Positions 1,480-16,645 of a stretch of DNA of 32,000 nucleotides are shown in pieces. This DNA is from Candidatus Electrothrix yaqonensis. Its GTDB lineage: Bacteria > Desulfobacterota > Desulfobulbia > Desulfobulbales > Desulfobulbaceae. Numbering within the stretch: position 1 is the first letter of the stretch; each line of letters opens with the position of its first letter. Where the stretch lies: assembly GCA_047651235.1 (NCBI GenBank), contig CP178758.1, positions 3,630,001 through 3,662,000 on the forward strand. The letters run 5' to 3'. Both the position numbers and the translations under genes were made by a program. Below the pieces are notes generated by a model. It made no database searches. It saw only the letters and a program-made list of their open reading frames with translations, and was not told the DNA's origin.

Positions 1480-1697
1480 ATTTTCCTGCAGCCCGACCGG
1501 ACCTGCGGTATTGGAAAAATTTGAAATTATGGGAGAGCGGTACACTTGTCAACCACCCTGCAGGACGACACATCTTACTCTATAAAGCGGCAAATCCGGA
1601 AGTTATTTTCTTCACGTTTCCGTTTTCCTTATCTGAATTTTTTGCTAACTTAAAAAGTTATCTCAGTGCATCGACTCGAAAATTGAGGAAAGCAGAT

Positions 1698-3047
1698 ATG
1701 GGAGCGCTGTCCAGGGCAAAAAAAGAGAAATATACCTGCTATCAACAACAGCTGCAAAGCCGATGTGAGCAGCAGCACGAATTACTGCGGCGACTGCAGA
1801 GAGATCACGCCATTGTTACTGATCCTGCCGTCAAATTCGAGCGGGAGCAACAGATTGAAGCTGCCCGGAGCGAATGTAAGCAGATCAGGCATGACCTGAG
1901 CCTGCTGGAAGATGCGCTGCGGACTGGTGATGACAGCAGAGTGCCTGCGCGATATCAACGTAAGCCCAAGGCTGAAAGCCCAGCCCGGCAGAACCTGCTG
2001 ACTCTGCTGCAGGGGGTCAAATCCGCCTGGATTGAGGGCGTGCTGAAACAATCCCTGCATAACGAGGTACTGATCGAACTGCGCAAAACCCAGGAGGACG
2101 ATGCCGTCGATCGGCTGGAGCAGCCCCTGAACCTCAGCCTGGATAAGCCTGATGCGTCAGAAGAGACCATACTGCTTGATGAGGATATTCAGGAAACTTA
2201 TGAAGAGGCGGGAGGTACTCTGCTGATTCTCGGCGCACCGGGTGCCGGCAAAACCATTTCCCTACTCGATTTAACCCGCCGTCTGGCCAATGATGCTGTG
2301 TTTGATTCCGACCAGCCCATTCCGGTGGTCTTCAACCTTTCTTCATATACAGATAAACGGCAATCGCTGGCAGACTGGCTGGTGGATGAGCTGTGGGCCA
2401 AATACCGCATTCCCACCAAAATAGGGCGAAAGTGGATTGAAGATACGGAGCGGCGACCGCTTGTCCTGATGCTGGATGGTCTGGATGAGGTGGCGGAAGA
2501 TCTCCGTCCGGCCTGTGTGCAGGCTGTGAATTCCTATCGGGAGCAATATGCCCTGCGCGGCATTGTGGTGGCCTGCCGTCATCGGGAATACCGGGAGATT
2601 TCGGGCAAGCTCAAACTGGAGCAGGCCCTGTGTGTTCAACCGCTGACAGACCGGCAGGTTGAAGACTACCTGACCGGTGGCGGTGAGGAATTAGCCGGGT
2701 TGCACGCGGCCCTGCCTGCGGATGAGGGATTCCGGGAGCTGGCCCGTTCTCCCCTGATTCTGAGTATGATGTGCCTGGCCTACCGGGATCAGCCGGTTGA
2801 AACGATTCTTCAGGATGTGGCCGGGACAGCCGAGACCCGGCAGCCCAAGCTCTTTGCTGCCTATGTGCAGAGCATGTTCCGGCGGCCACGCAGCGGGGTT
2901 GAATACGAAGAGGAAAAGACCCGCCGCTGGCTGACCTTTTTGGCGTACAATATGCAGAAGCATGGACAGACCATCTTTCAGATAGAAAACCTTCAGCCGA
3001 GCTGGCTGCTGACAAAAGGTGGGTATAGCTGGAGCAACATAATTTGA
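1698..3047 (+). CDS. NACHT-family STAND NTPase with a coiled-coil-like N-terminus; appears C-terminally truncated or split
   Basis: Walker A LILGAPGAGKT and Walker B LVLMLDGLDEV with NACHT-type spacing, followed by winged-helix-like sequence. The start is placed at ATG 1698 (GAGGA 6-7 nt upstream) rather than the tracked 1521, which overlaps murD. The ORF ends right after the motif IENLQPSWLL, with no sensor or repeat domain. Confidence 0.8.
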   Translation: MGALSRAKKEKYTCYQQQLQSRCEQQHELLRRLQRDHAIVTDPAVKFEREQQIEAARSECKQIRHDLSLLEDALRTGDDSRVPARYQRKPKAESPARQNLLTLLQGVKSAWIEGVLKQSLHNEVLIELRKTQEDDAVDRLEQPLNLSLDKPDASEETILLDEDIQETYEEAGGTLLILGAPGAGKTISLLDLTRRLANDAVFDSDQPIPVVFNLSSYTDKRQSLADWLVDELWAKYRIPTKIGRKWIEDTERRPLVLMLDGLDEVAEDLRPACVQAVNSYREQYALRGIVVACRHREYREISGKLKLEQALCVQPLTDRQVEDYLTGGGEELAGLHAALPADEGFRELARSPLILSMMCLAYRDQPVETILQDVAGTAETRQPKLFAAYVQSMFRRPRSGVEYEEEKTRRWLTFLAYNMQKHGQTIFQIENLQPSWLLTKGGYSWSNII

Positions 3048-3542: not shown

Positions 3543-4040
3543 TCCAAGACTTTTAGTAGACTCTCATTTATGAGGCCTTATAGAAAATCATCGTACAACG
3601 TACATGACTTGAAAGTTCACCTGATTTGGATAACAAAATATCGTTACAAAGTGTTAAGTAAAGATATAAGTATTCGAATCAGAGAGATAATACGCCGAAT
3701 ATGTGATTCGAAAGATATTCAAATTATCAAAGGGAATATCAGTCAGGATCATGTCCATATCTATGTGTCATATCCTCCCAAAATATCCGTGAGTGAAATG
3801 GTGCGATTTTTCAAGGGTCGCTCTTCAAAAAAGATTCAGGAAGAATTTCCTCAACTGTCCAGAAGATACTGGGGAAAACATTTTTGGGGTATTGGCTGCG
3901 TTGCTTTGAGTTCCGGACACGTTACTGATGAAATGATACGGAATTATATTGAAAATCACAGAAATGACCCAAATCATAATAATGACGATTTTAAGATAGA
4001 ATAACGACTTTCAGTCGTTACACACTGACTTGAGTCAGCG
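3530..4040 (+). mobile_element. IS200/IS605-family insertion sequence (tnpA only)
   Basis: A Y1 HUH transposase gene is flanked by subterminal hairpins that share a GACT..AGTC core: GGACTttAGTCC (3534-3545), AACGACTttcAGTCGTT (4003-4019) and CTGACTtgAGTCAG (4025-4038). The element is AT-rich relative to its neighbours. Confidence 0.8.
3570..4004 (+). CDS. tnpA: IS200/IS605 family transposase TnpA (Y1 HUH)
   Basis: 144 aa. Contains the HUH motif (DHVHIYV) and a C-terminal catalytic Tyr region (MIRNYIENH), plus the typical LIWITKYRYKVL N-terminus. Confidence 0.92.
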   Translation: MRPYRKSSYNVHDLKVHLIWITKYRYKVLSKDISIRIREIIRRICDSKDIQIIKGNISQDHVHIYVSYPPKISVSEMVRFFKGRSSKKIQEEFPQLSRRYWGKHFWGIGCVALSSGHVTDEMIRNYIENHRNDPNHNNDDFKIE

Positions 4041-7384: not shown

Positions 7385-7710
7385 TTACTGTCGCCAGCGA
7401 CTGATGAACCCTCCACTTTCTGCAGAAATACCTGCAGTTCAGGTGAACTGGATTGAGCTGAACCTGAACGCTGCAGCGTGATAGCGGCATCACCCTCCCA
7501 CACCATTCCCAATTCTGACCGAACAGAATCGTCCTGCGCATAAGTGCGTCCAGCTTTTTCTACAAAGAGCTACAACCGGTATTTTGGCTGCAGGCACCCT
7601 CATGAAGCGCATGTTTGGGCGCCAGTAAATCTTCTTATAAAAAATTAAATATTAAATAGAGAACATACCCCTTCCGTCTAATATTATTTTCGATTCAGAG
7701 TATTTTTTTC

Positions 7711-7739
7711 TTGACGCCGTATTTAATATTTTATATCTT
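7711..7739 (+). promoter_or_regulatory. Sigma70-like promoter with an AT-rich UP-like element
   Basis: TTGACG, 17 nt, TATCTT. It is preceded by AAAAAATTAAATATTAAATA and conserved in copy 2. This is a sequence prediction only. Confidence 0.4.
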
Positions 7740-7820
7740 AAGATAAAGAGAAGCTATATCGGTCATTCATTATCCGGCTGCAGCAGCTCAATTTACGAAC
7801 ATAAAAAACTACATAATTCT

Positions 7821-7994
7821 ATGGCAGCGCTTATTCAGTAATAAGTAGGCACCGTGCTTTCCGGTCAGAAACGGAAAGCTGAATAAAGCCACAACCGTCG
7901 CGAGGCGGTGTCGGAAAACTACGGGTCTCCAGAGAGGAGACAGCCGGGTTACCTGCTTTTTCCATTTCACTTTTATACCGGGAGGTAAGTTATG
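7821..7994 (+). promoter_or_regulatory. Conserved structured 5' leader (candidate cis-regulatory RNA or riboswitch), copy 1
   Basis: By my reading it is 100% identical to 12965..13138. Hairpins: CTTATT/AATAAG; GCTTTCCG-GTCAGAAA-CGGAAAGC (7856-7879); CCGTC-GCGA-GGCGG (7895-7908, GNRA loop); GTCTCC-AGAGA-GGAGAC (7925-7941). These are followed by AGCCGGGTTACC and then GGGAGG-N6-ATG (7992). Confidence 0.45.
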
Positions 7995-8247
7995 AAATCT
8001 CCAAAAACAGTATCCCGCCACATTATCTGCCCCCCTTCAAGCTGTACCGGCAGATTTTTCCCTTTATTTTTTAAAAAAAGGAATTGTAGTTTCGCCGATT
8101 CGTTGAGCACCCGCTGCTGCGGATCAGCATAACTATACTTTTCTATACTTTTTGATCGTTTGTTTTTCTGAACAAAAAACTGTGCCTGTAACTGTTATCT
8201 GCACAACCCGACAATAGCTATCCTTATTAACAAGGAGGAGAGATCGA

Positions 8248-11200
8248 ATGAAAAAAAATACATTAACCGCATTATGCCTGGCATCATTGATGCTTACCGC
8301 ATCTGCTGCCCAGGCTCAAGAGACAGCGGATACCGCGAGCTGTGAGACAGCATATGCCTTTGGCAGCAGGGCATTGAGTGAAATTCCCGACCTCAAAAAT
8401 GCACGATGGGGATGGGAAATTATCCTGAACGGAAACGATGCATTAGTTACATCGATTTATGCCGGTGCCGGAGGGGAAGATACCACAAAAGGAGCCTATA
8501 TAGGCGATCTTCGGATTGACAGAAATGACGATCTGGTCACCCTGCAGCTCGATATACTGGAGGGAATATCTCTCAGCGAAACGCATATTTATGTAGGAAC
8601 AGAGGATGTCCCCACAACAGCAAATGGAGGATATGCAAGCCTTACGCAGCAGATAGGAAGACTCGATTCATACGGCAACGGCCTGTATAAAGTTCAACTG
8701 AATGACGAGACCCTCAATGTCGATAAGCTGTATGTTGTTGTTCATCTTAACGCGTGCAAAGGCGGCGATGATCCAAACACAAACACGGAATGCGGTGCCG
8801 ACAGCCCGTGGAAAGGACCGTGGGACAATGCTGTAGAATACAAATCAGGTGATGTTGTTGGATATGAAGGCAGCAGCTATGTCAACGTCTGCTGCGAGGA
8901 GACACCAAGCATAGCAGGCATAGCACCTACTGCCGACTTGTTCGATCCTTTTACTGAGGAAGGTTGCTGGAAACTCGTAGCTGAGAAAGGCGAGCAGGGT
9001 CCTGAAGGCCCCGAAGGTCCGCAGGGTGAAACCGGTCTGACTGGCGATACAGGTCCGCAGGGTCCGATTGGTCCGGTAGGCCCGCAGGGTGATCAGGGTG
9101 AAGTTGGTCCGCAGGGTCCGATTGGTCCGGTAGGTCCGCAGGGTGAAACCGGTCTGACTGGCGATACAGGTCCGCAGGGTCCGATTGGTCCGGTAGGCCC
9201 GCAGGGTGATCAGGGTGAAGTTGGTCCGCAGGGTCCGATTGGTCCGGTAGGTCCGCAGGGTGAAACCGGTCTGACTGGCGATACAGGTCCGCAGGGTCCG
9301 ATTGGTCCGGTAGGTCCGCAGGGTGAAACCGGTCTGACTGGCGATACAGGTCCGCAGGGTCCGATTGGTCCGGTAGGCCCGCAGGGTGATCAGGGTGAAG
9401 TTGGTCCGCAGGGTCCGATTGGTCCGGTAGGTCCGCAGGGTGATCAGGGTGAAGTTGGTCCGCAGGGTCCGATTGGTCCGGTAGGTCCGCAGGGTGAAAC
9501 CGGTCTGACTGGCGATACAGGTCCGCAGGGTCCGATTGGTCCGGTAGGTCCGCAGGGTGAAACCGGTCTGACTGGCGATACAGGTCCGCAGGGTCCGATT
9601 GGTCCGGTAGGCCCGCAGGGTGATCAGGGTGAAGTTGGTCCGCAGGGTCCGATTGGTCCGGTAGGCCCGCAGGGTGAAACCGGTCTGACTGGCGATACAG
9701 GTCCGCAGGGTCCGATTGGTCCGGTAGGCCCGCAGGGTGATCAGGGTGAAGTTGGTCCGCAGGGTCCGATTGGTCCGGTAGGTCCGCAGGGTGAAACCGG
9801 TCTGACTGGCGATACAGGTCCGCAGGGTCCGATTGGTCCGGTAGGTCCGCAGGGTGAAACCGGTCTGACTGGCGATACAGGTCCGCAGGGTCCGATTGGT
9901 CCGGTAGGCCCGCAGGGTGATCAGGGTGAAGTTGGTCCGCAGGGTCCGATTGGTCCGGTAGGTCCGCAGGGTGAAACCGGTCTGACTGGCGATACAGGTC
10001 CGCAGGGTCCGATTGGTCCGGTAGGCCCGCAGGGTGATCAGGGTGAAGTTGGTCCGCAGGGTCCGATTGGTCCGGTAGGTCCGCAGGGTGAAACCGGTCT
10101 GACTGGCGATACAGGTCCGCAGGGTCCGATTGGTCCGGTAGGTCCGCAGGGTGAAACCGGTCTGACTGGCGATACAGGTCCGCAGGGTCCGATTGGTCCG
10201 GTAGGCCCGCAGGGTGAAACCGGTCTGACTGGCGATACAGGTCCGCAGGGTCCGATTGGTCCGGTAGGTCCGCAGGGTGAAACCGGTCTGACTGGCGATA
10301 CAGGTCCGCAGGGTCCGATTGGTCCGGTAGGCCCGCAGGGTGATCAGGGTGAAGTTGGTCCGCAGGGTCCGATTGGTCCGGTAGGTCCGCAGGGTGAAAC
10401 CGGTCTGACTGGCGATACAGGTCCGCAGGGTCCGATTGGTCCGGTAGGCCCGCAGGGTGATCAGGGTGAAGTTGGTCCGCAGGGTCCGATTGGTCCGGTA
10501 GGCCCGCAGGGTGAAACCGGTCTGACTGGCGATACAGGTCCGCAGGGTCCGATTGGTCCGGTAGGCCCGCAGGGTGATCAGGGTGAAGTTGGTCCGCAGG
10601 GTCCGATTGGTCCGGTAGGTCCGCAGGGTGAAACCGGTCTGACTGGCGATACAGGTCCGCAGGGTCCGATTGGTCCGGTAGGTCCGCAGGGTGAAACCGG
10701 TCTGACTGGCGATACAGGTCCGCAGGGTCCGATTGGTCCGGTAGGCCCGCAGGGTGATCAGGGTGAAGTTGGTCCGCAGGGTCCGATTGGTCCGGTAGGT
10801 CCGCAGGGTGAAACCGGTCTGACTGGCGATACAGGTCCGCAGGGTCCGATTGGTCCGGTAGGCCCGCAGGGTGATCAGGGTGAAGTTGGTCCGCAGGGTC
10901 CGATTGGTCCGGTAGGTCCGCAGGGTGAAACCGGTCTGACTGGCGATACAGGTCCGCAGGGTCCGATTGGTCCGGTAGGTCCGCAGGGTGAAACCGGTCT
11001 GACTGGCGATACAGGTCCGCAGGGTCCGATTGGTCCGGTAGGCCCGCAGGGTGAAACCGGTCTGACTGGCGATACAGGTCCGCAGGGTCCGATTGGTCCG
11101 GTAGGTCCGCAGGGTGAAACCGGTCTGACTGGCGATACAGGTCCGCAGGGTCCGATTGGTCCGGTAGGCCCGCAGGGTGATCAGGGTGAAGTTGGTCCGC

Positions 11201-12111
11201 AGGGTCCGATTGGTCCGGTAGGTCCGCAGGGTGAAACCGGTCTGACTGGCGATACAGGTCCGCAGGGTCCGATTGGTCCGGTAGGCCCGCAGGGTGATCA
11301 GGGTGAAGTTGGTCCGCAGGGTCCGATTGGTCCGGTAGGTCCGCAGGGTGAAACCGGTCTGACTGGCGATACAGGTCCGCAGGGTCCGATTGGTCCGGTA
11401 GGCCCGCAGGGTGATCAGGGTGAAGTTGGTCCGCAGGGTCCGATTGGTCCGGTAGGTCCGCAGGGTGAAACCGGTCTGACTGGCGATACAGGTCCGCAGG
11501 GTCCGATTGGTCCGGTAGGCCCGCAGGGTGATCAGGGTGAAGTTGGTCCGCAGGGTCCGATTGGTCCGGTAGGCCCGCAGGGTCCGAAAGGTGATACCGG
11601 CGAATACCCGTTAGGTCAGTGTGACTTCGGTCAGATTCTAACCGGTTTTAATTCCAACGGTCCAATCTGCGAAGACATACCGGTCAACCTGATTGGCGGC
11701 TGCGAAACAGCCTTCGCTCACGGTGATAGAACATTGAATTCCTTCCTTGATACAAACCGGTGGGGATGGGAGATCACTGTAAATCCAGGACAAACGAAGA
11801 CAGGTATCCCGATTTATGCCGGAGCGGGACAGAATGACACCAGCAAGGGAACCCAGGTAGGCGAACTGACTGTAGCCTACACAGGAAACACGGTAACCGT
11901 TACCTACACCATGACAGCAGATGAGATCATCATGAAGGAAACCCATCTGTATGTGGGTGAGGAAAGTGTCACAACTGCAGCACCTGGCCAGTACGGTCTG
12001 CAGGATGAAGGTTTGCTCAATGCAACCACTGATAGCTATACAGTAACTGTCAGCGGCACAAAGTCGGTCAAGGTCGTCGCTCATGCTGTAACCTGTACAA
12101 AAGCGGACTAA
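8248..12111 (+). CDS. Giant secreted collagen-like (Gly-X-Y) protein with the same Cys-bracketed globular domain at both ends
   Basis: 1287 aa. AAGGAGGAG lies upstream of the ATG. Signal peptide: [24 protein letters not shown]-terminal domain 8341-8757. A CBM5/12-like W..W..Y..GDVV.Y.GSSY segment follows. There are 873 uninterrupted G-X-Y residues (8989-11607), then a Cys knot [19 protein letters not shown], then the C-terminal domain 11701-12096. Confidence 0.9.
9025..11580 (+). repeat. In-frame tandem array of 43 units: 26 of 63 nt ([22 protein letters not shown]) and 17 of 54 nt ([19 protein letters not shown])
   Basis: All unit boundaries were checked against the sequence. The order is ABABAABBAABABAABABAAAABABABAABABAAAABABABAB. 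Units of one type are almost identical; the only variation seen is GGC/GGT at one Gly codon. Blocks 9790-10626 and 10627-11463 are an 837-bp duplicate pair. Confidence 0.95.
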
Positions 12112-12631: not shown

Positions 12632-12853
12632 TAAAGCTGTTTGAAAAACATGCTTCTAACAATACAGTTTCCGGGATAGATGTTGCAACCGGTATTTTGA
12701 CTGCAGGCAGCCTTATGGACCGTATGGTTGAGCATCAGTAAATCTTCTGTATTTTGCCAAGGTTACGTATCCTGAATATATAAAAAATTAAATATTAAAT
12801 AGAGAACATACCCCTTCCGTCTAATATTATTTTCGATTCAGAGTATTTTTTTC

Positions 12854-12882
12854 TTGACGCCGTATATAATATTTTATACTTT
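12854..12882 (+). promoter_or_regulatory. Sigma70-like promoter, copy 2
   Basis: TTGACG, 17 nt, TACTTT, with the same UP-like AT tract as copy 1. Confidence 0.35.
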
Positions 12883-12964
12883 TAAGATAAAGAGAAGCTG
12901 TATCGGTCATTCATTATCCGGCTGCAGCAGCTCAATTTACGAACATAGAAAACTACATAACTCT

Positions 12965-13138
12965 ATGGCAGCGCTTATTCAGTAATAAGTAGGCACCGTG
13001 CTTTCCGGTCAGAAACGGAAAGCTGAATAAAGCCACAACCGTCGCGAGGCGGTGTCGGAAAACTACGGGTCTCCAGAGAGGAGACAGCCGGGTTACCTGC
13101 TTTTTCCATTTCACTTTTATACCGGGAGGTAAGTTATG
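12965..13138 (+). promoter_or_regulatory. Conserved structured 5' leader, copy 2
   Basis: Identical to 7821..7994 and ends at the same SD-ATG (13136). Downstream sequence diverges after the codons MKSP. Confidence 0.45.
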
Positions 13139-13558
13139 AAATCCCCACCAGCAGTATTCAACCGTAGTATCCCTTCAGTCGTACCCGTAGGTCTTCCGAC
13201 CGCAGACCGCAGTTCCTGTCTTCTTCCTGTTCAGTCAGGAAAGAAATCTCAGTCTGATTATCAGGACAATGCCGAGTACCGGCACGTCCGACTCAGCCTA
13301 TACTGTTCTTCGGTATAATCTGAGCTTTTACAGAGGCTGAGCTGCAGCTTTAATTTAAATTTAATTCATTAACGAACAGGAGAGTACGACCCCGGAAAAA
13401 CGCGATGTATTCCGGTGACACTCCGTATTTTTCAGCTTTGTTTTTAAAAAGAACAGACCCTTAATCCGTCTGAATAGGATCATACCGACTTTTTGATCTG
13501 TACAGATAAACTAATCCCCTGCCTCAGTAAGAGGCAAATAAAAAAAAGAGGAATGATA

Positions 13559-16500
13559 ATGAAGAGAAAAAACGTGTTGACAGCGTTATGTCTGGCATCT
13601 CTGATGCTTACCGCGTCTGCTGTCCAAGCAACAGGCCCCACTGAGCAGGAACTGCAAGCTTGCAATGAAGCAAAGAATATTGAAGATTGCAAGGAGCATG
13701 TGAGGGAGCTGGCGAAGGCTCGGGAAGAGAAGTTGAAGCAGAAAGAGCTGGACCGGGAAGAGAAGCTGAAACAGAAAGAGCTGGACCGGGAAGAAAAGCT
13801 GAAACAGAAAGAGCTGGACCGGGAAGAAAAGCTGAAACAGAAAGAGCTGGACCGGGAAGAGAAACTGAAGCAGAAAGAGCAGGAGTGGGTGAAGAAGAAG
13901 GAGGAGGAGTGCGAGAATCCTAAGGAGAAACCTAAGGATAAGCCTAAGAACCCCCCTAATGACAACCCTGGTCAGAAGCCTACGGCCGGGAAGGATTGCC
14001 AGACGGCGTATGCCTTTGGAGACCGGACAGATGCCAATCCTAATGATGCGGCAGTATATCAATCCGCTGACGGAGAGCTTGATACTTATCTGGGAGATCA
14101 GGTGCTTAACGAGTTGCCGGGTCTCAAGCCGAATCGGTGGGGATGGATGCTTTCCATCTTTAATGGGGATGAGTTTACTGTACCGATCTATGCCGGTGCC
14201 GGAAAAAACGATATTGCAAGGGGCACCCATGTTGGAAATCTGACAGTTATCTACAAGGAAGGTCTGTTAACCGTATCTTTTGGTATGTTTGAAGGATTTT
14301 CTTTGAATGGAAGCCATTTGTACGTAAATAACGGAATAAATGACGGAGAGGAGCATGTGCCCACCTCCGCACCGGGCAGATATGATGACTACAGTATAGG
14401 AAACCGGACATTCGATTCCGCTACAGATACATATACCGTGGATCTTGGAACAGCAGACTTTCCATCTTCTTTATATATTGCTGTTCATAGCGTAGTTTGC
14501 GAAGGAGAACAAGGTGGAGGACAAGGCGGAGGAGGAGACTGCACTATATGCCCGGCAGGGCCGAAAGGTGAGAAAGGTGATCCGGGTATCCAAGGCCTCG
14601 AAGGTCCGCAGGGTCCGATTGGCCTGACTGGTCCGGAAGGCCCGGAAGGCCCGCAGGGTATCCAGGGTGAAACAGGCCCGGAAGGCCCCGCAGGTCCGCA
14701 GGGTCCGATTGGCCTGACTGGTCCGATAGGCCCCGAAGGCCCGCAGGGTATCCAGGGTGAAACAGGCCCGGAAGGTCCCGCAGGTCCGATAGGTCCGGAA
14801 GGCCCGCAGGGTATCCAGGGTGAAACAGGCCCGGAAGGCCCCGCAGGTCCGATAGGTCCCGAAGGTCCGAAAGGCAAAAAGGGCAAAAAAGGTGATCCGG
14901 GCATCCAAGGTCCTGAAGGCCCGACTGGTCCGGAAGGCCCGCAGGGTATCCAGGGTGAAACAGGCCCGGAAGGTCCCGCAGGTCCGATAGGCCCGGAAGG
15001 CCCGCAGGGTATCCAGGGTGAAACAGGCCCGGAAGGCCCCGCAGGTCCGATAGGTCCCGAAGGTCCGAAAGGCAAAAAGGGCAAAAAAGGTGATCCGGGC
15101 ATCCAAGGTCCTGAAGGCCCGACTGGTCCGGAAGGCCCGCAGGGTATCCAGGGTGAAACAGGCCCGGAAGGTCCCGCAGGTCCGATAGGCCCGGAAGGCC
15201 CGCAGGGTATCCAGGGTGAAACAGGCCCGGAAGGCCCCGCAGGTCCGATAGGTCCCGAAGGTCCGAAAGGCAAAAAGGGCAAAAAAGGTGATCCGGGCAT
15301 CCAAGGTCCTGAAGGCCCGACTGGTCCGGAAGGCCCGCAGGGTATTCAGGGTGAAACAGGCCCGGAAGGCCCCGCAGGTCCTCAGGGTCCGATTGGCCTG
15401 ACTGGTCCGGAAGGTCCCGAAGGTCCGCAGGGTCCGATTGGCCTGACCGGTCCGGAAGGCCCCGCAGGTCCGCAGGGTCCGATTGGCCTGACTGGTCCGG
15501 AAGGTCCCGAAGGTCCTCAGGGTCCGATTGGCCTGACTGGTCCGGAAGGCCCCGCAGGTCCTCAGGGTCCGATTGGCCTGACTGGTCCGGAAGGTCCCGA
15601 AGGTCCGCAGGGTCCGATTGGCCTGACCGGTCCGGAAGGCCCCGCAGGTCCGCAGGGTCCGATTGGCCTGACTGGTCCGGAAGGTCCCGAAGGTCCGCAG
15701 GGTCCGATTGGCCTGACTGGTCCGGAAGGTCCCGAAGGTCCGCAGGGTCCGATTGGCCTGACTGGTCCGGAAGGTCCCGAAGGTCCGATTGGCCTGACTG
15801 GTCCGGAAGGTCCCGAAGGTCCGCAGGGCATCCAGGGTGAAAAGGGCGACAAAGGTGATCCTGGCCAGGTAGTAATTAATGTCGGTAACTGTCCAGAAAA
15901 TCAGGTTATGACGGGTATTACCGTCGTGGATGGAGAATTAAGAGTAATCTGCGAGGAGTTCTGCAACTTCACCTGCAGCAGCCAGCCTGTCTGCGGCAAT
16001 GGCATTAAGGAGACAGGTGAAGAGTGTGACGACGGAAACATTTTGAATGGAGACGGTTGTTCCTCTACCTGCACCGATGAGCCAACAGGTGATATTCAGC
16101 CCGGAGACTTCCGGACACAGACGCAGGGCGGATGGGGCCAGGACGAATGCAATGGCGGCAATCCTGCATGCTACCGCAACGATAACTTCGACACATGTTT
16201 CAGCAACGGCCTGATCGTCGGTGACCCGGATGGTCCTGACAGCGACACTTCGTACGCACTCGAACTGACATCATCGGCAGCGGTAGCAGGTTCCCTGCCA
16301 GCTGGCGGTTCCTCCAAGGCACTTACTGCGGACTTCACTGATCCCGGTAACTTGAACCAGATAACAGGTGTATTGGGCGGACAGCTCGTAGCCGCCACGC
16401 TCAGCGTGACGTTCGACAGGTGCGACACCGATTTCGGAGCCAGCAATGAAGAACTCGGCAACTTGGTCTATGCTGCGAGTGCATGTATTAATATGACGGT

Positions 16501-16645
16501 TGATCAGGTGCTTGCTGAAGCGAATACGATCATCAGCGGTGGCGCAAGTACCTTCACCCCAAGCCAGATCAGTGATTGTCTGGCCACCCTGAATGAGTGC
16601 TTCGTGGACGGAACTCAGACGTGCAATAATTTTGTACTGCCGTAA
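13559..16645 (+). CDS. Secreted multidomain collagen-like protein (charged repeats, Cys-bracketed domain, 438-aa G-X-Y region, Cys-rich repeat, C-terminal domain)
   Basis: The start is set at ATG 13559 (AGAGGA 6 nt upstream) because this gives [24 protein letters not shown], parallel to gene 1. The tracked ORF begins at 13493. Layout: [11 protein letters not shown] x5, a PK-rich linker, the domain at 13997-14500, G-X-Y at 14558-15871, then [27 protein letters not shown], then about 185 aa of C-terminal domain. Confidence 0.9.
13721..13885 (+). repeat. Five tandem 33-nt in-frame repeats encoding [11 protein letters not shown]
   Basis: Units begin at 13721, 13754, 13787, 13820 and 13853. The last is degenerate ([11 protein letters not shown]). 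Confidence 0.9.
14558..15871 (+). repeat. Collagen-like G-X-Y coding repeats with 198-bp and 90-bp higher-order periods
   Basis: There are 146 uninterrupted triplets. GGTCCGAAAGGCAAAAAGGGCAAAAAAGGT ([10 protein letters not shown]) recurs at 14864, 15062 and 15260, a 198-bp period. [30 protein letters not shown] (90 nt) repeats from about 15379 to 15780. Confidence 0.9.

Follow-up and report, generated by a model that had tools for sequence, protein, structure and literature searches.

A duplicated leader with a predicted c-di-GMP-I riboswitch upstream of two collagen-like genes in Candidatus Electrothrix yaqonensis

In the genome of Candidatus (Ca.) Electrothrix yaqonensis, two genes for large collagen-like proteins are preceded by the same structured leader, which raises the question of what this RNA is and whether it governs the genes behind it. 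The window analyzed here is the whole stretch of 32,000 nucleotides (nt) (GenBank assembly GCA_047651235.1, contig CP178758.1, positions 3,630,001 to 3,662,000 of the forward strand), and coordinates count from its first letter. A first-pass annotation, made from the letters alone, had described a 174-nt identity between 7821-7994 and 12965-13138 set in diverged DNA, and had taken the shared segment for a candidate riboswitch resembling GEMM-I. The identity is real and lies wholly inside a larger perfect block: exact-match extension gives 100% identity over 182 nt between 7818-7999 and 12962-13143, at an offset of 5144. The divergence of the surrounding DNA holds downstream, where the first mismatch falls at 8000 and the pairwise alignment has 12 differences within the next 30 nt, but not upstream, where 7637-7817 (180 nt) is still ~97% identical between the copies (5 substitutions and 1 indel). 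The 182-nt riboswitch block has 0 differences, compared with 6 in the adjoining 182 upstream columns. The duplicated unit is larger than first supposed, and its identity climbs toward the structured part. On balance, we read this leader as a riboswitch for c-di-GMP (cyclic diguanosine monophosphate), of the class c-di-GMP-I (GEMM-I), with a translational expression platform that would turn the start codon behind it off.

The identity of the aptamer was addressed with the Infernal/Rfam check proposed in the first-pass annotation. The whole window was scanned on both strands with cmscan against all 4227 families of Rfam 15 at gathering thresholds, and exactly two matches were returned, both to RF01051, c-di-GMP-I (GEMM-I). 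The aptamer and its two helices are the following:

7878-7956, plus strand: c-di-GMP-I aptamer, copy 1 (RF01051, 55.0 bits against a gathering score of 35, E = 2.6e-8, model positions 1-87 of 87)
13022-13100, plus strand: c-di-GMP-I aptamer, copy 2, identical to copy 1 (RF01051, 55 bits, E = 2.6e-8, model positions 1-87 of 87)
7889-7914, plus strand: helix P2, with its hairpin at 7894-7909 and a GCGA (GNRA) loop at 7900-7903 (cmscan alignment)
7917-7950, plus strand: helix P3, with the inner stem GUCUCC-AGAGA-GGAGAC (cmscan alignment)

In the region 7600-8300, other Rfam families at E <= 10 gave only chance-level matches to small nucleolar and long noncoding RNAs. The cmscan alignments place the three ligand-contact residues, in the numbering of the Vc2 riboswitch, at G7888 (G20), A7915 (A47) and C7952 (C92); their roles have been described previously (PMC5888326, PMC4744006, PMC6140456). 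The universally conserved interhelical Watson-Crick pair C44-G83 (PMC4744006) corresponds to C7912 and G7943, the former within the GUC before the 3' strand of the P2 base and the latter in an AG bulge of P3. The canonical 5' GGCAAAC element, at first thought not to be evident, is present as GCCACAAC (G7888-CC-ACA-A), with the two P2-base pairs changed compensatorily from the GC/GC of the consensus to CC/GG (C7889-G7914 and C7890-G7913). Likewise, the GCGA hairpin that had been regarded as an insertion is the standard P2. Four hairpins per copy are indeed found (H1, P0, P2 and P3), of which the true extras, H1 and P0, both lie 5' of the aptamer. A variant, a different RNA or a coincidence had also been considered, and none of these fits a binding site with the canonical G20/A47/C92.

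P2 and P3, with their A-rich junctions (AAAG-P2-CGNAAA-P3-ACC), contain only one non-standard pair in the cmscan alignment. The receptor positions of the RF01051 model are deleted in this alignment, and a short P3 without the 11-nt tetraloop receptor appears to be the sole architectural departure of the aptamer. This receptor is a feature of a large GEMM-I subset and is absent from part of the family. The GCGA loop of P2 fits GNRA, and its docking into the minor groove of P3 is possible. P1 is closed by G7881-C7953, which matches G14-C93 of the P1 annotated in RF03167, and then by C7879-G7955 through G7874-U7960, with one additional nucleotide between P1 and G20 in the window relative to its relatives.

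Relatives were found by a scan of one genome per species with the cysteine-bounded domain of the collagen-like proteins, and by a metagenome scan using a 21-nt pattern from P3 and the tail that follows it. The closest relatives in the domain scan belong to the cable bacteria Ca. Electronema halotolerans, Ca. Electrothrix aarhusensis and Ca. Electronema spp. PJ and JC, and a GEMM-I aptamer lies upstream of the homologous gene in three of these Electronema/Electrothrix loci. On the strength of these relatives, the source of the window was taken to be a cable bacterium or a near relation. The 21-nt pattern retrieved 14 further loci, all of them matches to the GEMM-I clan. The resulting alignment, A3, holds 16 leaders: one from the window, two from Ca. 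Electronema genomes and 13 from metagenome contigs. Across these 16, the P2 and P3 helices are 97-100% paired. The suggested likeness to GEMM-I is thus borne out by the RF01051 match and by homologous leaders, in which the helices persist and show some compensatory changes. Apart from the tetraloop receptor, the leader has every defining c-di-GMP-I feature that is open to an in silico test, and it is not a new RNA class; we are nearly certain that it contains a c-di-GMP-I aptamer.

Which ligand would such an aptamer sense? Binding by the leader RNA is predicted, and the prediction of c-di-GMP, and neither cyclic GMP-AMP (cGAMP) nor the ligands of the c-di-GMP-I-UAU and c-di-GMP-I-GGC variants, is a strong one as judged from sequence. 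GEMM-Ib, the class for 3'3'-cGAMP, is recognized by an adenine at position 20 (A14 of Gs1761; PMC6140456), whereas position 20 of the leader is a G (G7888); membership in GEMM-Ib is therefore disfavoured and c-di-GMP predicted instead. Furthermore, wild-type Vc2, with its G20, binds cGAMP at ~10 uM compared with c-di-GMP in the pM range (PMC6140456). A different ligand, be it 3'3'-cGAMP or that of one of the variant classes, could be argued from the Rfam scores, as the best model of the clan in E-value mode is RF03168 (c-di-GMP-I-UAU), with 63.7 bits versus 55 for RF01051 (7879-7957), sister leaders exceed the UAU or GGC gathering scores, and one relative has an A at position 20. However, the 63.7 bits of the window are below the UAU gathering score of 65.9, and the name-giving residues do not match: the window carries G/A/C at positions 20/47/92, as opposed to U/A/U in the UAU consensus and to a G at 47 in that of GGC. 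RF03168 was discarded on these grounds, and so was RF03167 (c-di-GMP-I-GGC), since the window and all sister leaders have an A at 47 (CGGAAA) where the consensus reads CGCGAAg; several sister leaders pass the RF03167 gathering score of 59 through architecture. The leader thus shares with both variants a compact, short P3 without the receptor, which gives their models the highest scores on this subfamily, but it does not carry the nucleotides that define them, and a ligand other than c-di-GMP is highly improbable.

RF03167 and RF03168 also outscore RF01051 on loci L003, L007, L008, L014, L016, L017, L018 and L021, where the contact residues are the canonical G/A/C, and several of these relatives pass the variant models' own gathering scores. 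Choosing an Rfam variant family by top score would mislabel the subfamily, as architecture and not the binding site drives the scores. At L021 (2274-2352, minus strand), an A takes the place of the G at the G20 position (AUAAAACC vs AUAAAGCC), a change typical of cGAMP-sensing or bispecific GEMM-Ib, and there may have been a specificity switch at this locus within an otherwise uniform leader family.

The next question is how ligand binding could reach gene expression. Between the 5' end of the leader and the start codon, the following elements were distinguished:

7829-7846 (copy 2, 12973-12990), plus strand: H1, 5' leader hairpin GCUUAUU-CAGU-AAUAAGU, stem CUUAUU/AAUAAG (folding)
7856-7879 (copy 2, 13000-13023), plus strand: P0, 8-base-pair (bp) stem GCUUUCCG/CGGAAAGC with loop GUCAGAAA (folding)
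7855-7864 (copy 2, 12999-13008), plus strand: X, proposed anti-Shine-Dalgarno (anti-SD) segment UGCUUUCCGG, pyrimidine-rich, the 5' arm of P0 (complementarity)
7872-7881, plus strand: Y, 5' strand of P1, purine-rich, overlapping the 3' arm of P0 (pair counts in A3)
7953-7963 (copy 2, 13097-13107), plus strand: Z, 3' strand of P1, CUGCUUUUUCC, similar to X (folding and pair counts)
7978-7994 (copy 2, 13122-13138), plus strand: Shine-Dalgarno (SD) region CCGGGAGGUA (7978-7987, similar to Y) with the AUG at 7992-7994 (in all 16 leaders)

These elements follow a fixed order in A3: H1; P0; the segment ending in UGAUAAAG; the aptamer; the tail and Z; a short linker; and the SD with the start codon. 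Their consensus is CUUUCYGG for X, CCRGRAAG for Y, RCCUGCUUU for the tail and Z, and (A)UACCRGGGAGGUAUGUUAUG for the SD and start. A hairpin occupies the H1 position in most homologous leaders, and P0 appears in the minimum-free-energy folds of nearly all of them. The strong SD, with its core GGGAGG at 7980-7985, and the ATG described at the end of the element are confirmed, and the SD and start codon (equivalents of 7980-7994) are kept in 16/16 leaders; the codons MKSP are common to both window copies, which diverge from position 8000. X is complementary to both Y and the SD region (7978-7987), and P0 and P1 are mutually exclusive because both need Y, as the 3' arm in P0 and as the 5' strand in P1. 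The SD also lies inside a small conserved palindrome, AUACC-GGGA-GGUAU (7975-7989 and the homologous positions of A3), which could form a hairpin of 4-5 bp with a GNRA-like loop.

The switch very probably acts on the SD and AUG at 7980-7994. This is its natural target because, in the loci that we call type A (L007, L008, L016, L018, L014, L022 and L024), the equivalent AUG, 22-31 nt past the aptamer, begins a genuine gene for a secreted protein. At L007, L008, L016 and L018 the product is a 343-amino-acid (aa) secreted protein with a CETAFAFG domain, and at L014 and L022 a CAP-domain lipoprotein.

A translational OFF switch is predicted because X is complementary to the SD region and covaries with it, and because P1 takes its 5' strand from the 3' arm of P0. 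In the absence of ligand, X and Y would pair in the local P0 hairpin, whose transcription comes first, and GGGAGG and the AUG at 7992 would be accessible, so that the short open reading frame (ORF) opened by this AUG, the leader ORF, would be translated. Binding of c-di-GMP would stabilize P1 (Y:Z) and pull Y off X; the freed X would pair with the SD region over 10 bp and sequester it, and P1 and X:SD together would make one long nested helix closing the aptamer.

The predicted energies are consistent with this exchange. The X:SD duplex of the window (UGCUUUCCGG with CCGGGAGGUA, 10 bp) has -14.7 kcal/mol, and across the leaders cognate X:SD duplexes average -11.4 kcal/mol compared with -10.3 kcal/mol for non-cognate ones, an advantage reached in 42/5000 permutations; for X:Y the corresponding count is 2/5000. 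In constrained folding, forcing P1 to form lowers the probability of an unpaired SD in the window from 0.36 to 0.02. Under the same constraint, X pairs with the SD in the majority of leaders, with a similar drop in L012, L014-L017, L019, L022 and L024. Enforcing P1 costs the ensemble of the window 3.7 kcal/mol, far below the binding energy implied by the pM-nM dissociation constants of GEMM-I (PMC6140456, PMC5888326). Additionally, the RNAalifold consensus, which reflects ligand-free thermodynamics, contains P0, P2 and P3 and leaves the SD unpaired. Pair counts in A3 give 94.5% of cells paired for P0, with three pairs showing both-sided changes, 88% for X:SD, where columns 70/217, outside the SD core, hold CG six times, UA six times, UG three times and another combination once, and 90% for P1 (Y:Z), where columns 103/195 hold AU seven times, GC four times and GU twice.

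An intrinsic terminator straight after the aptamer was considered and rejected: the run CUGCUUUUU is the 3' strand of P1 and not a terminator tail, and the plus-strand terminator scan found nothing directly 3' of the aptamer.

The same aptamer could, on the contrary, serve an ON switch. In the ligand-free state, UUACCU at 7949-7954 and the Z segment CUUUUUCC would pair with AGGUAA (7983-7988) or GGGAGG, binding would lock the tail, including C92, into the aptamer and free the SD, and P0 would be a constitutive hairpin stacked on a short P1. UUACCU/AGGUAA does provide 6 bp in the window, and the five inner tail:SD pairs are 75-100% conserved in A3. However, the tail:SD duplexes are weak (mean -6.1 kcal/mol) and have no cognate advantage (2185/5000 permutations), no pair changes on both sides, the share of paired cells is only 74%, and the pairing breaks down in L023 and L025. 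Both strands are otherwise constrained, the tail by ligand contact and the SD as the complement of 16S ribosomal RNA, so that their complementarity may be incidental, and the ON model gives no reason why a conserved CCRG stands 5' of the SD and covaries with the CYGG of X. Tail:SD pairing was set aside as the main mechanism for its weak duplexes and lack of cognate advantage. A precedent for ON comes from a related riboswitch, that of the orthologue from this collagen-like gene family in Ca. Electrothrix aarhusensis (L003, 2746-2860), a GEMM-I aptamer with a different platform. There, a strong intrinsic terminator (GGCCGGUUACCU / AGGUAACCCGGCC, 12-bp stem and then U8) overlaps the aptamer's 3' strand in a clear ON-switch layout, and its 3' arm (GAGGUAACC; GAGGUAA) resembles the SD region of the window. 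An ON switch would also suit the usual biology, as c-di-GMP induces surface adhesins, for example Bc2/Cap (PMC4933901). Considering both sides, we regard the ON arrangement as quite unlikely for the window.

Several points weigh against the OFF switch as well. The covariation is modest, as both-sided changes occur in only 2/10 X:SD pairs and 1/7 P1 pairs, the 16 sequences of A3 are closely related, and the shuffle controls for pair counts are not probabilities. Enforced P1 does not clearly sequester the SD in L007, L008 and L018, where P0 has long insertions. The hairpin AUACC-GGGA-GGUAU, or the weak pairing UUACCU/AGGUAA, could act in place of X:SD, and the terminator layout of L003 would mean that homologous genes are regulated in opposite directions. 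More generally, c-di-GMP induces adhesins more often than it represses them. Support for the OFF direction is thus moderate, because of the related sequences, the unclear switching in L007, L008 and L018 and the ON layout of L003, and the model makes OFF the somewhat more probable direction.

If the OFF switch controls the AUG at 7992, it remains to be asked what this start codon has to do with the collagen-like genes. The features concerned are the following:

7992-8132, plus strand: leader ORF 1, 46 codons, MKSPKTVSRH..., stop at 8130-8132 (translation)
13136-13318, plus strand: leader ORF 2, 60 codons, MKSPPAVFNRS..., stop at 13316-13318 (translation)
8079-8144, plus strand: long hairpin with the stop of leader ORF 1 (8130-8132) in its 3' arm, then a U-rich run; a possible atypical attenuator (folding, speculative)
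13292-13324, plus strand: hairpin with the stop of leader ORF 2 in its 3' arm, then CUUUU (folding, speculative)
13333-13351, plus strand: second hairpin, then AAUUUAAAUUU (folding, speculative; the only hairpin of the stop-codon regions flagged by the terminator scan)
8248-12111, plus strand: collagen-like secreted protein 1, 1287 aa, signal peptide, ~900 aa of Gly-X-Y (Pfam Collagen, E = 3e-129)
13559-16645, plus strand: collagen-like secreted protein 2, 1028 aa, signal peptide, hundreds of Gly-X-Y repeats (Pfam Collagen, E = 3e-63; DUF4215)

The gene starts at 8248 and 13559 lie 254 and 421 nt past the ATG, in agreement with the 250-420 nt given at first. The window provides two examples of what we call type B: here the equivalent AUG begins a short ORF of 40-116 codons with little conservation, and a secreted-protein gene with its own SD follows at a gap of -59 to +369 nt (115 and 240 nt in the window). 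The order of riboswitch, short ORF and secreted-protein gene is found in at least seven other loci (L012, L013, L015, L019, L021, L023 and L025). Homology of the leader ORFs to the type-A gene starts ends ~22 nt past the ATG (~7 codons), and the leader ORF of the window resembles what would remain of an ancestral gene start carried along with the riboswitch. The idea of a conserved leader peptide was rejected, as the two copies in the window part ways after 3-7 codons and other sequences are seen in sub-groups elsewhere (MKTLFHSS..., VKFS.GVSC...).

Direct translational coupling between leader ORF and main gene is plausible, judging by the arrangement of the genes, in L013, L021, L023 and L025, where the gaps are -59, -4, 26 and 22 nt. 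For the window a relay of another kind is conceivable. An untranslated leader would be terminated early, by Rho acting on a C-rich tract or at the stop-codon hairpins, and translation of the leader ORF would prevent this. In Salmonella mgtA/mgtL and in E. coli ribB, an untranslated C-rich, G-poor leader RNA recruits Rho and controls a distant gene; the likeness of the window to these systems is one of composition bias and stop-to-gene distance. The tract at 7995-8069 is C-rich and G-poor (C 0.35-0.37, G 0.13; C minus G reaches 0.23 per 60 nt and exceeds the window's 99th percentile), and that at 13139-13228 lies at about the 95th-99th percentile, so that the tracts are C-rich in both copies despite their diverged sequences. 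Type-B leader ORFs have a higher C>G bias than type-A genes (0.197 vs 0.121, Mann-Whitney p = 0.012, not phylogeny-corrected), a bias that separates leader ORFs from real genes only partly, as the real genes of L008 and L016 are also C-rich. Two findings count against a coupling of the leader ORFs to these genes. The stop-codon hairpins are poor intrinsic terminators, the one at 8079-8144 not having been flagged by the terminator scan, and the leader-ORF stops lie 115 and 240 nt before the real gene, which makes direct translational coupling impossible there. Coupling of the collagen-like genes to the leader ORF, through Rho or otherwise, is accordingly a tentative and somewhat doubtful proposal.

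Alternatively, the aptamer might be functional and decoupled: it would bind c-di-GMP and control only a relic start codon in this genome, the collagen-like genes would use their own signals, such as an unrecognized promoter in the 250-420-nt spacer, and the identity of the copies would reflect recent gene conversion instead of selection. This would agree with the lack of conservation between the copies past ~7 codons of the ORF behind the regulated AUG, with the distance of 115 or 240 nt from its stop to the real start, and with spacers that cannot be aligned between the two copies. Furthermore, the closest orthologous locus, L002 of Ca. Electronema halotolerans, has no riboswitch upstream of the gene, and a transposase-like ORF ends upstream of it. 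Nevertheless, the same gene order recurs in the seven or more other type-B loci with different downstream genes, and at four of these loci the stop of the leader ORF is at most 26 nt away from the main start or overlaps it. A consensus scan found no sigma-70-like site in either spacer, the C>G bias is common to leader ORFs, and the riboswitch block is free of differences where its flank has six. We consider the decoupled arrangement improbable.

The orthologue at L002 (2000-2912) has 68% nucleotide identity to 8236-8993 of the window, and the transposase-like ORF, a putative IS66-type transposase as read from its translation, ends ~480 nt upstream; an insertion may have replaced the leader at this locus.

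How did the leader come to stand in two places? Stretches of ~50-60 nt resembling the 3' end of a gene were duplicated along with it, at ~80% identity; they read ...GILAAGTLMKRMFGRQ (7577-7628) and ...GILTAGSLMDRMVEHQ (12690-12732), neither lies in an intact ORF, and they are probably remnants of a gene that formerly preceded the cassette. A second pair of leader copies, like that of the window, occurs ~980 nt apart on a 2.6-kb metagenome contig (L025, 1122-1200 and 2103-2178, minus strand). Two promoter-like sites precede the leaders of the window, that of copy 1 within the ~97%-identical upstream stretch:

7711-7739, plus strand: promoter-like site of copy 1, TTGACG (7711-7716), 17-nt spacer, TATCTT (7734-7739) (consensus match only)
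12854-12882, plus strand: promoter-like site of copy 2, TTGACG, 17-nt spacer, TACTTT (consensus match only)

A more far-reaching scenario, to which we give rather low credence as a whole, joins these elements. The 5' hairpin, the P0 anti-SD, the c-di-GMP-I aptamer, the SD/AUG and the first codons would be a portable cable-bacteria cassette copied before many secreted-protein genes; distant copies would keep the start codon as a C-rich leader ORF, whose c-di-GMP-controlled translation would gate Rho- or hairpin-dependent termination and so set the level of the collagen-like protein. If this were true, it would be a relay of riboswitch and leader ORF not described for GEMM-I, and it would tie c-di-GMP to the cell envelope of bacteria that grow as electrically conductive filaments.

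It is important to consider how the leader compares with known GEMM-I riboswitches. With Vc2 of Vibrio cholerae, upstream of tfoY and the type example of RF01051, it shares the two-hairpin aptamer, the GNRA loop on P2, G20/A47/C92 and C44-G83. Unlike Vc2, the window has a short P3 without the 11-nt receptor, C-G/C-G instead of G-C/C-G pairs at the base of P2, an extra hairpin P0 directly 5' of the aptamer, which supplies the predicted anti-SD (5' arm) and the 5' strand of P1 (3' arm), and a regulated start codon that opens a short leader ORF and not the main gene. Bc2 of Bacillus thuringiensis is usually described as a terminator-based ON switch, unlike the window, for which SD sequestration and the OFF direction are predicted. 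The likeness to Bc2 lies in its position, a class I riboswitch in the leader of a large collagen-connected surface protein (cap/cbpA; PMC4933901, PMC7423583); the Bc2-controlled protein binds collagen and is not itself collagen-like, and its host is a Firmicute. According to PMC4933901, the parent strain keeps cap repressed, and c-di-GMP affects its expression via the riboswitch. An OFF direction has precedents in Cd1, an OFF-acting GEMM-I switch (PMC4744006), and in Vc2 itself, which is reported to act in the same direction (bioRxiv 10.1101/617340). Bc1 resembles the window in that its GEMM-I output is spread over a long leader with several structures; it uses two rho-independent terminators 28 bp apart (PMC11218506), whereas in the window no convincing terminator adjoins the aptamer. 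Finally, c-di-GMP riboswitches precede several adhesins in Clostridioides difficile (PMC6200980).

Thus, c-di-GMP riboswitches upstream of large surface proteins and OFF-acting GEMM-I switches are already known, and the points of interest are the host, the anti-SD hairpin 5' of the aptamer, the recurrent leader-ORF arrangement and the apparent spread of the cassette. Within the collection of papers searched, none was found to link cable bacteria with c-di-GMP or with riboswitches, so the regulon is a new lead. The analysis assigns c-di-GMP as a testable signal to two very large collagen-like envelope proteins and to a small regulon of other leader-carrying secreted proteins, and thereby offers a lead on the control of the filament surface. 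Additionally, the leader would be a clean natural example of a GEMM-I platform in which an anti-SD 5' of the aptamer is predicted to be released when P1 forms. No genes for GGDEF, EAL or PilZ proteins were found near the riboswitches among the ORFs scanned.

The collagen-like proteins themselves share a cysteine-bounded domain of ~135-170 aa (CETAYAFG…RWGW…IYAGAG…THLYVG…C) that flanks the repeats and stands at both ends of protein 1. It also occurs without collagen repeats, in the 343-aa secreted protein (L007, 2416-3447). This domain corresponds to no Pfam family, and a profile search against PDB sequences gave no significant match (best E = 0.027). Ahead of its globular domain, the N-terminal part of protein 2 (13640-13900) has exact 13-residue repeats, ~4-5 times.

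Other features were noted in the window and on leader-carrying contigs. Upstream of an aconitase gene, the window contains an ORF for a NACHT/STAND NTPase (1521-3047) and an IS200-like (Y1) transposase (3570-4004). Locus L019 has a match to a group II intron domain (RF02005, 72.6 bits) at 2701-2843, and L003 has one to the Acido-Lenti-1 small RNA (RF01687, 45.9 bits) at 850-895.

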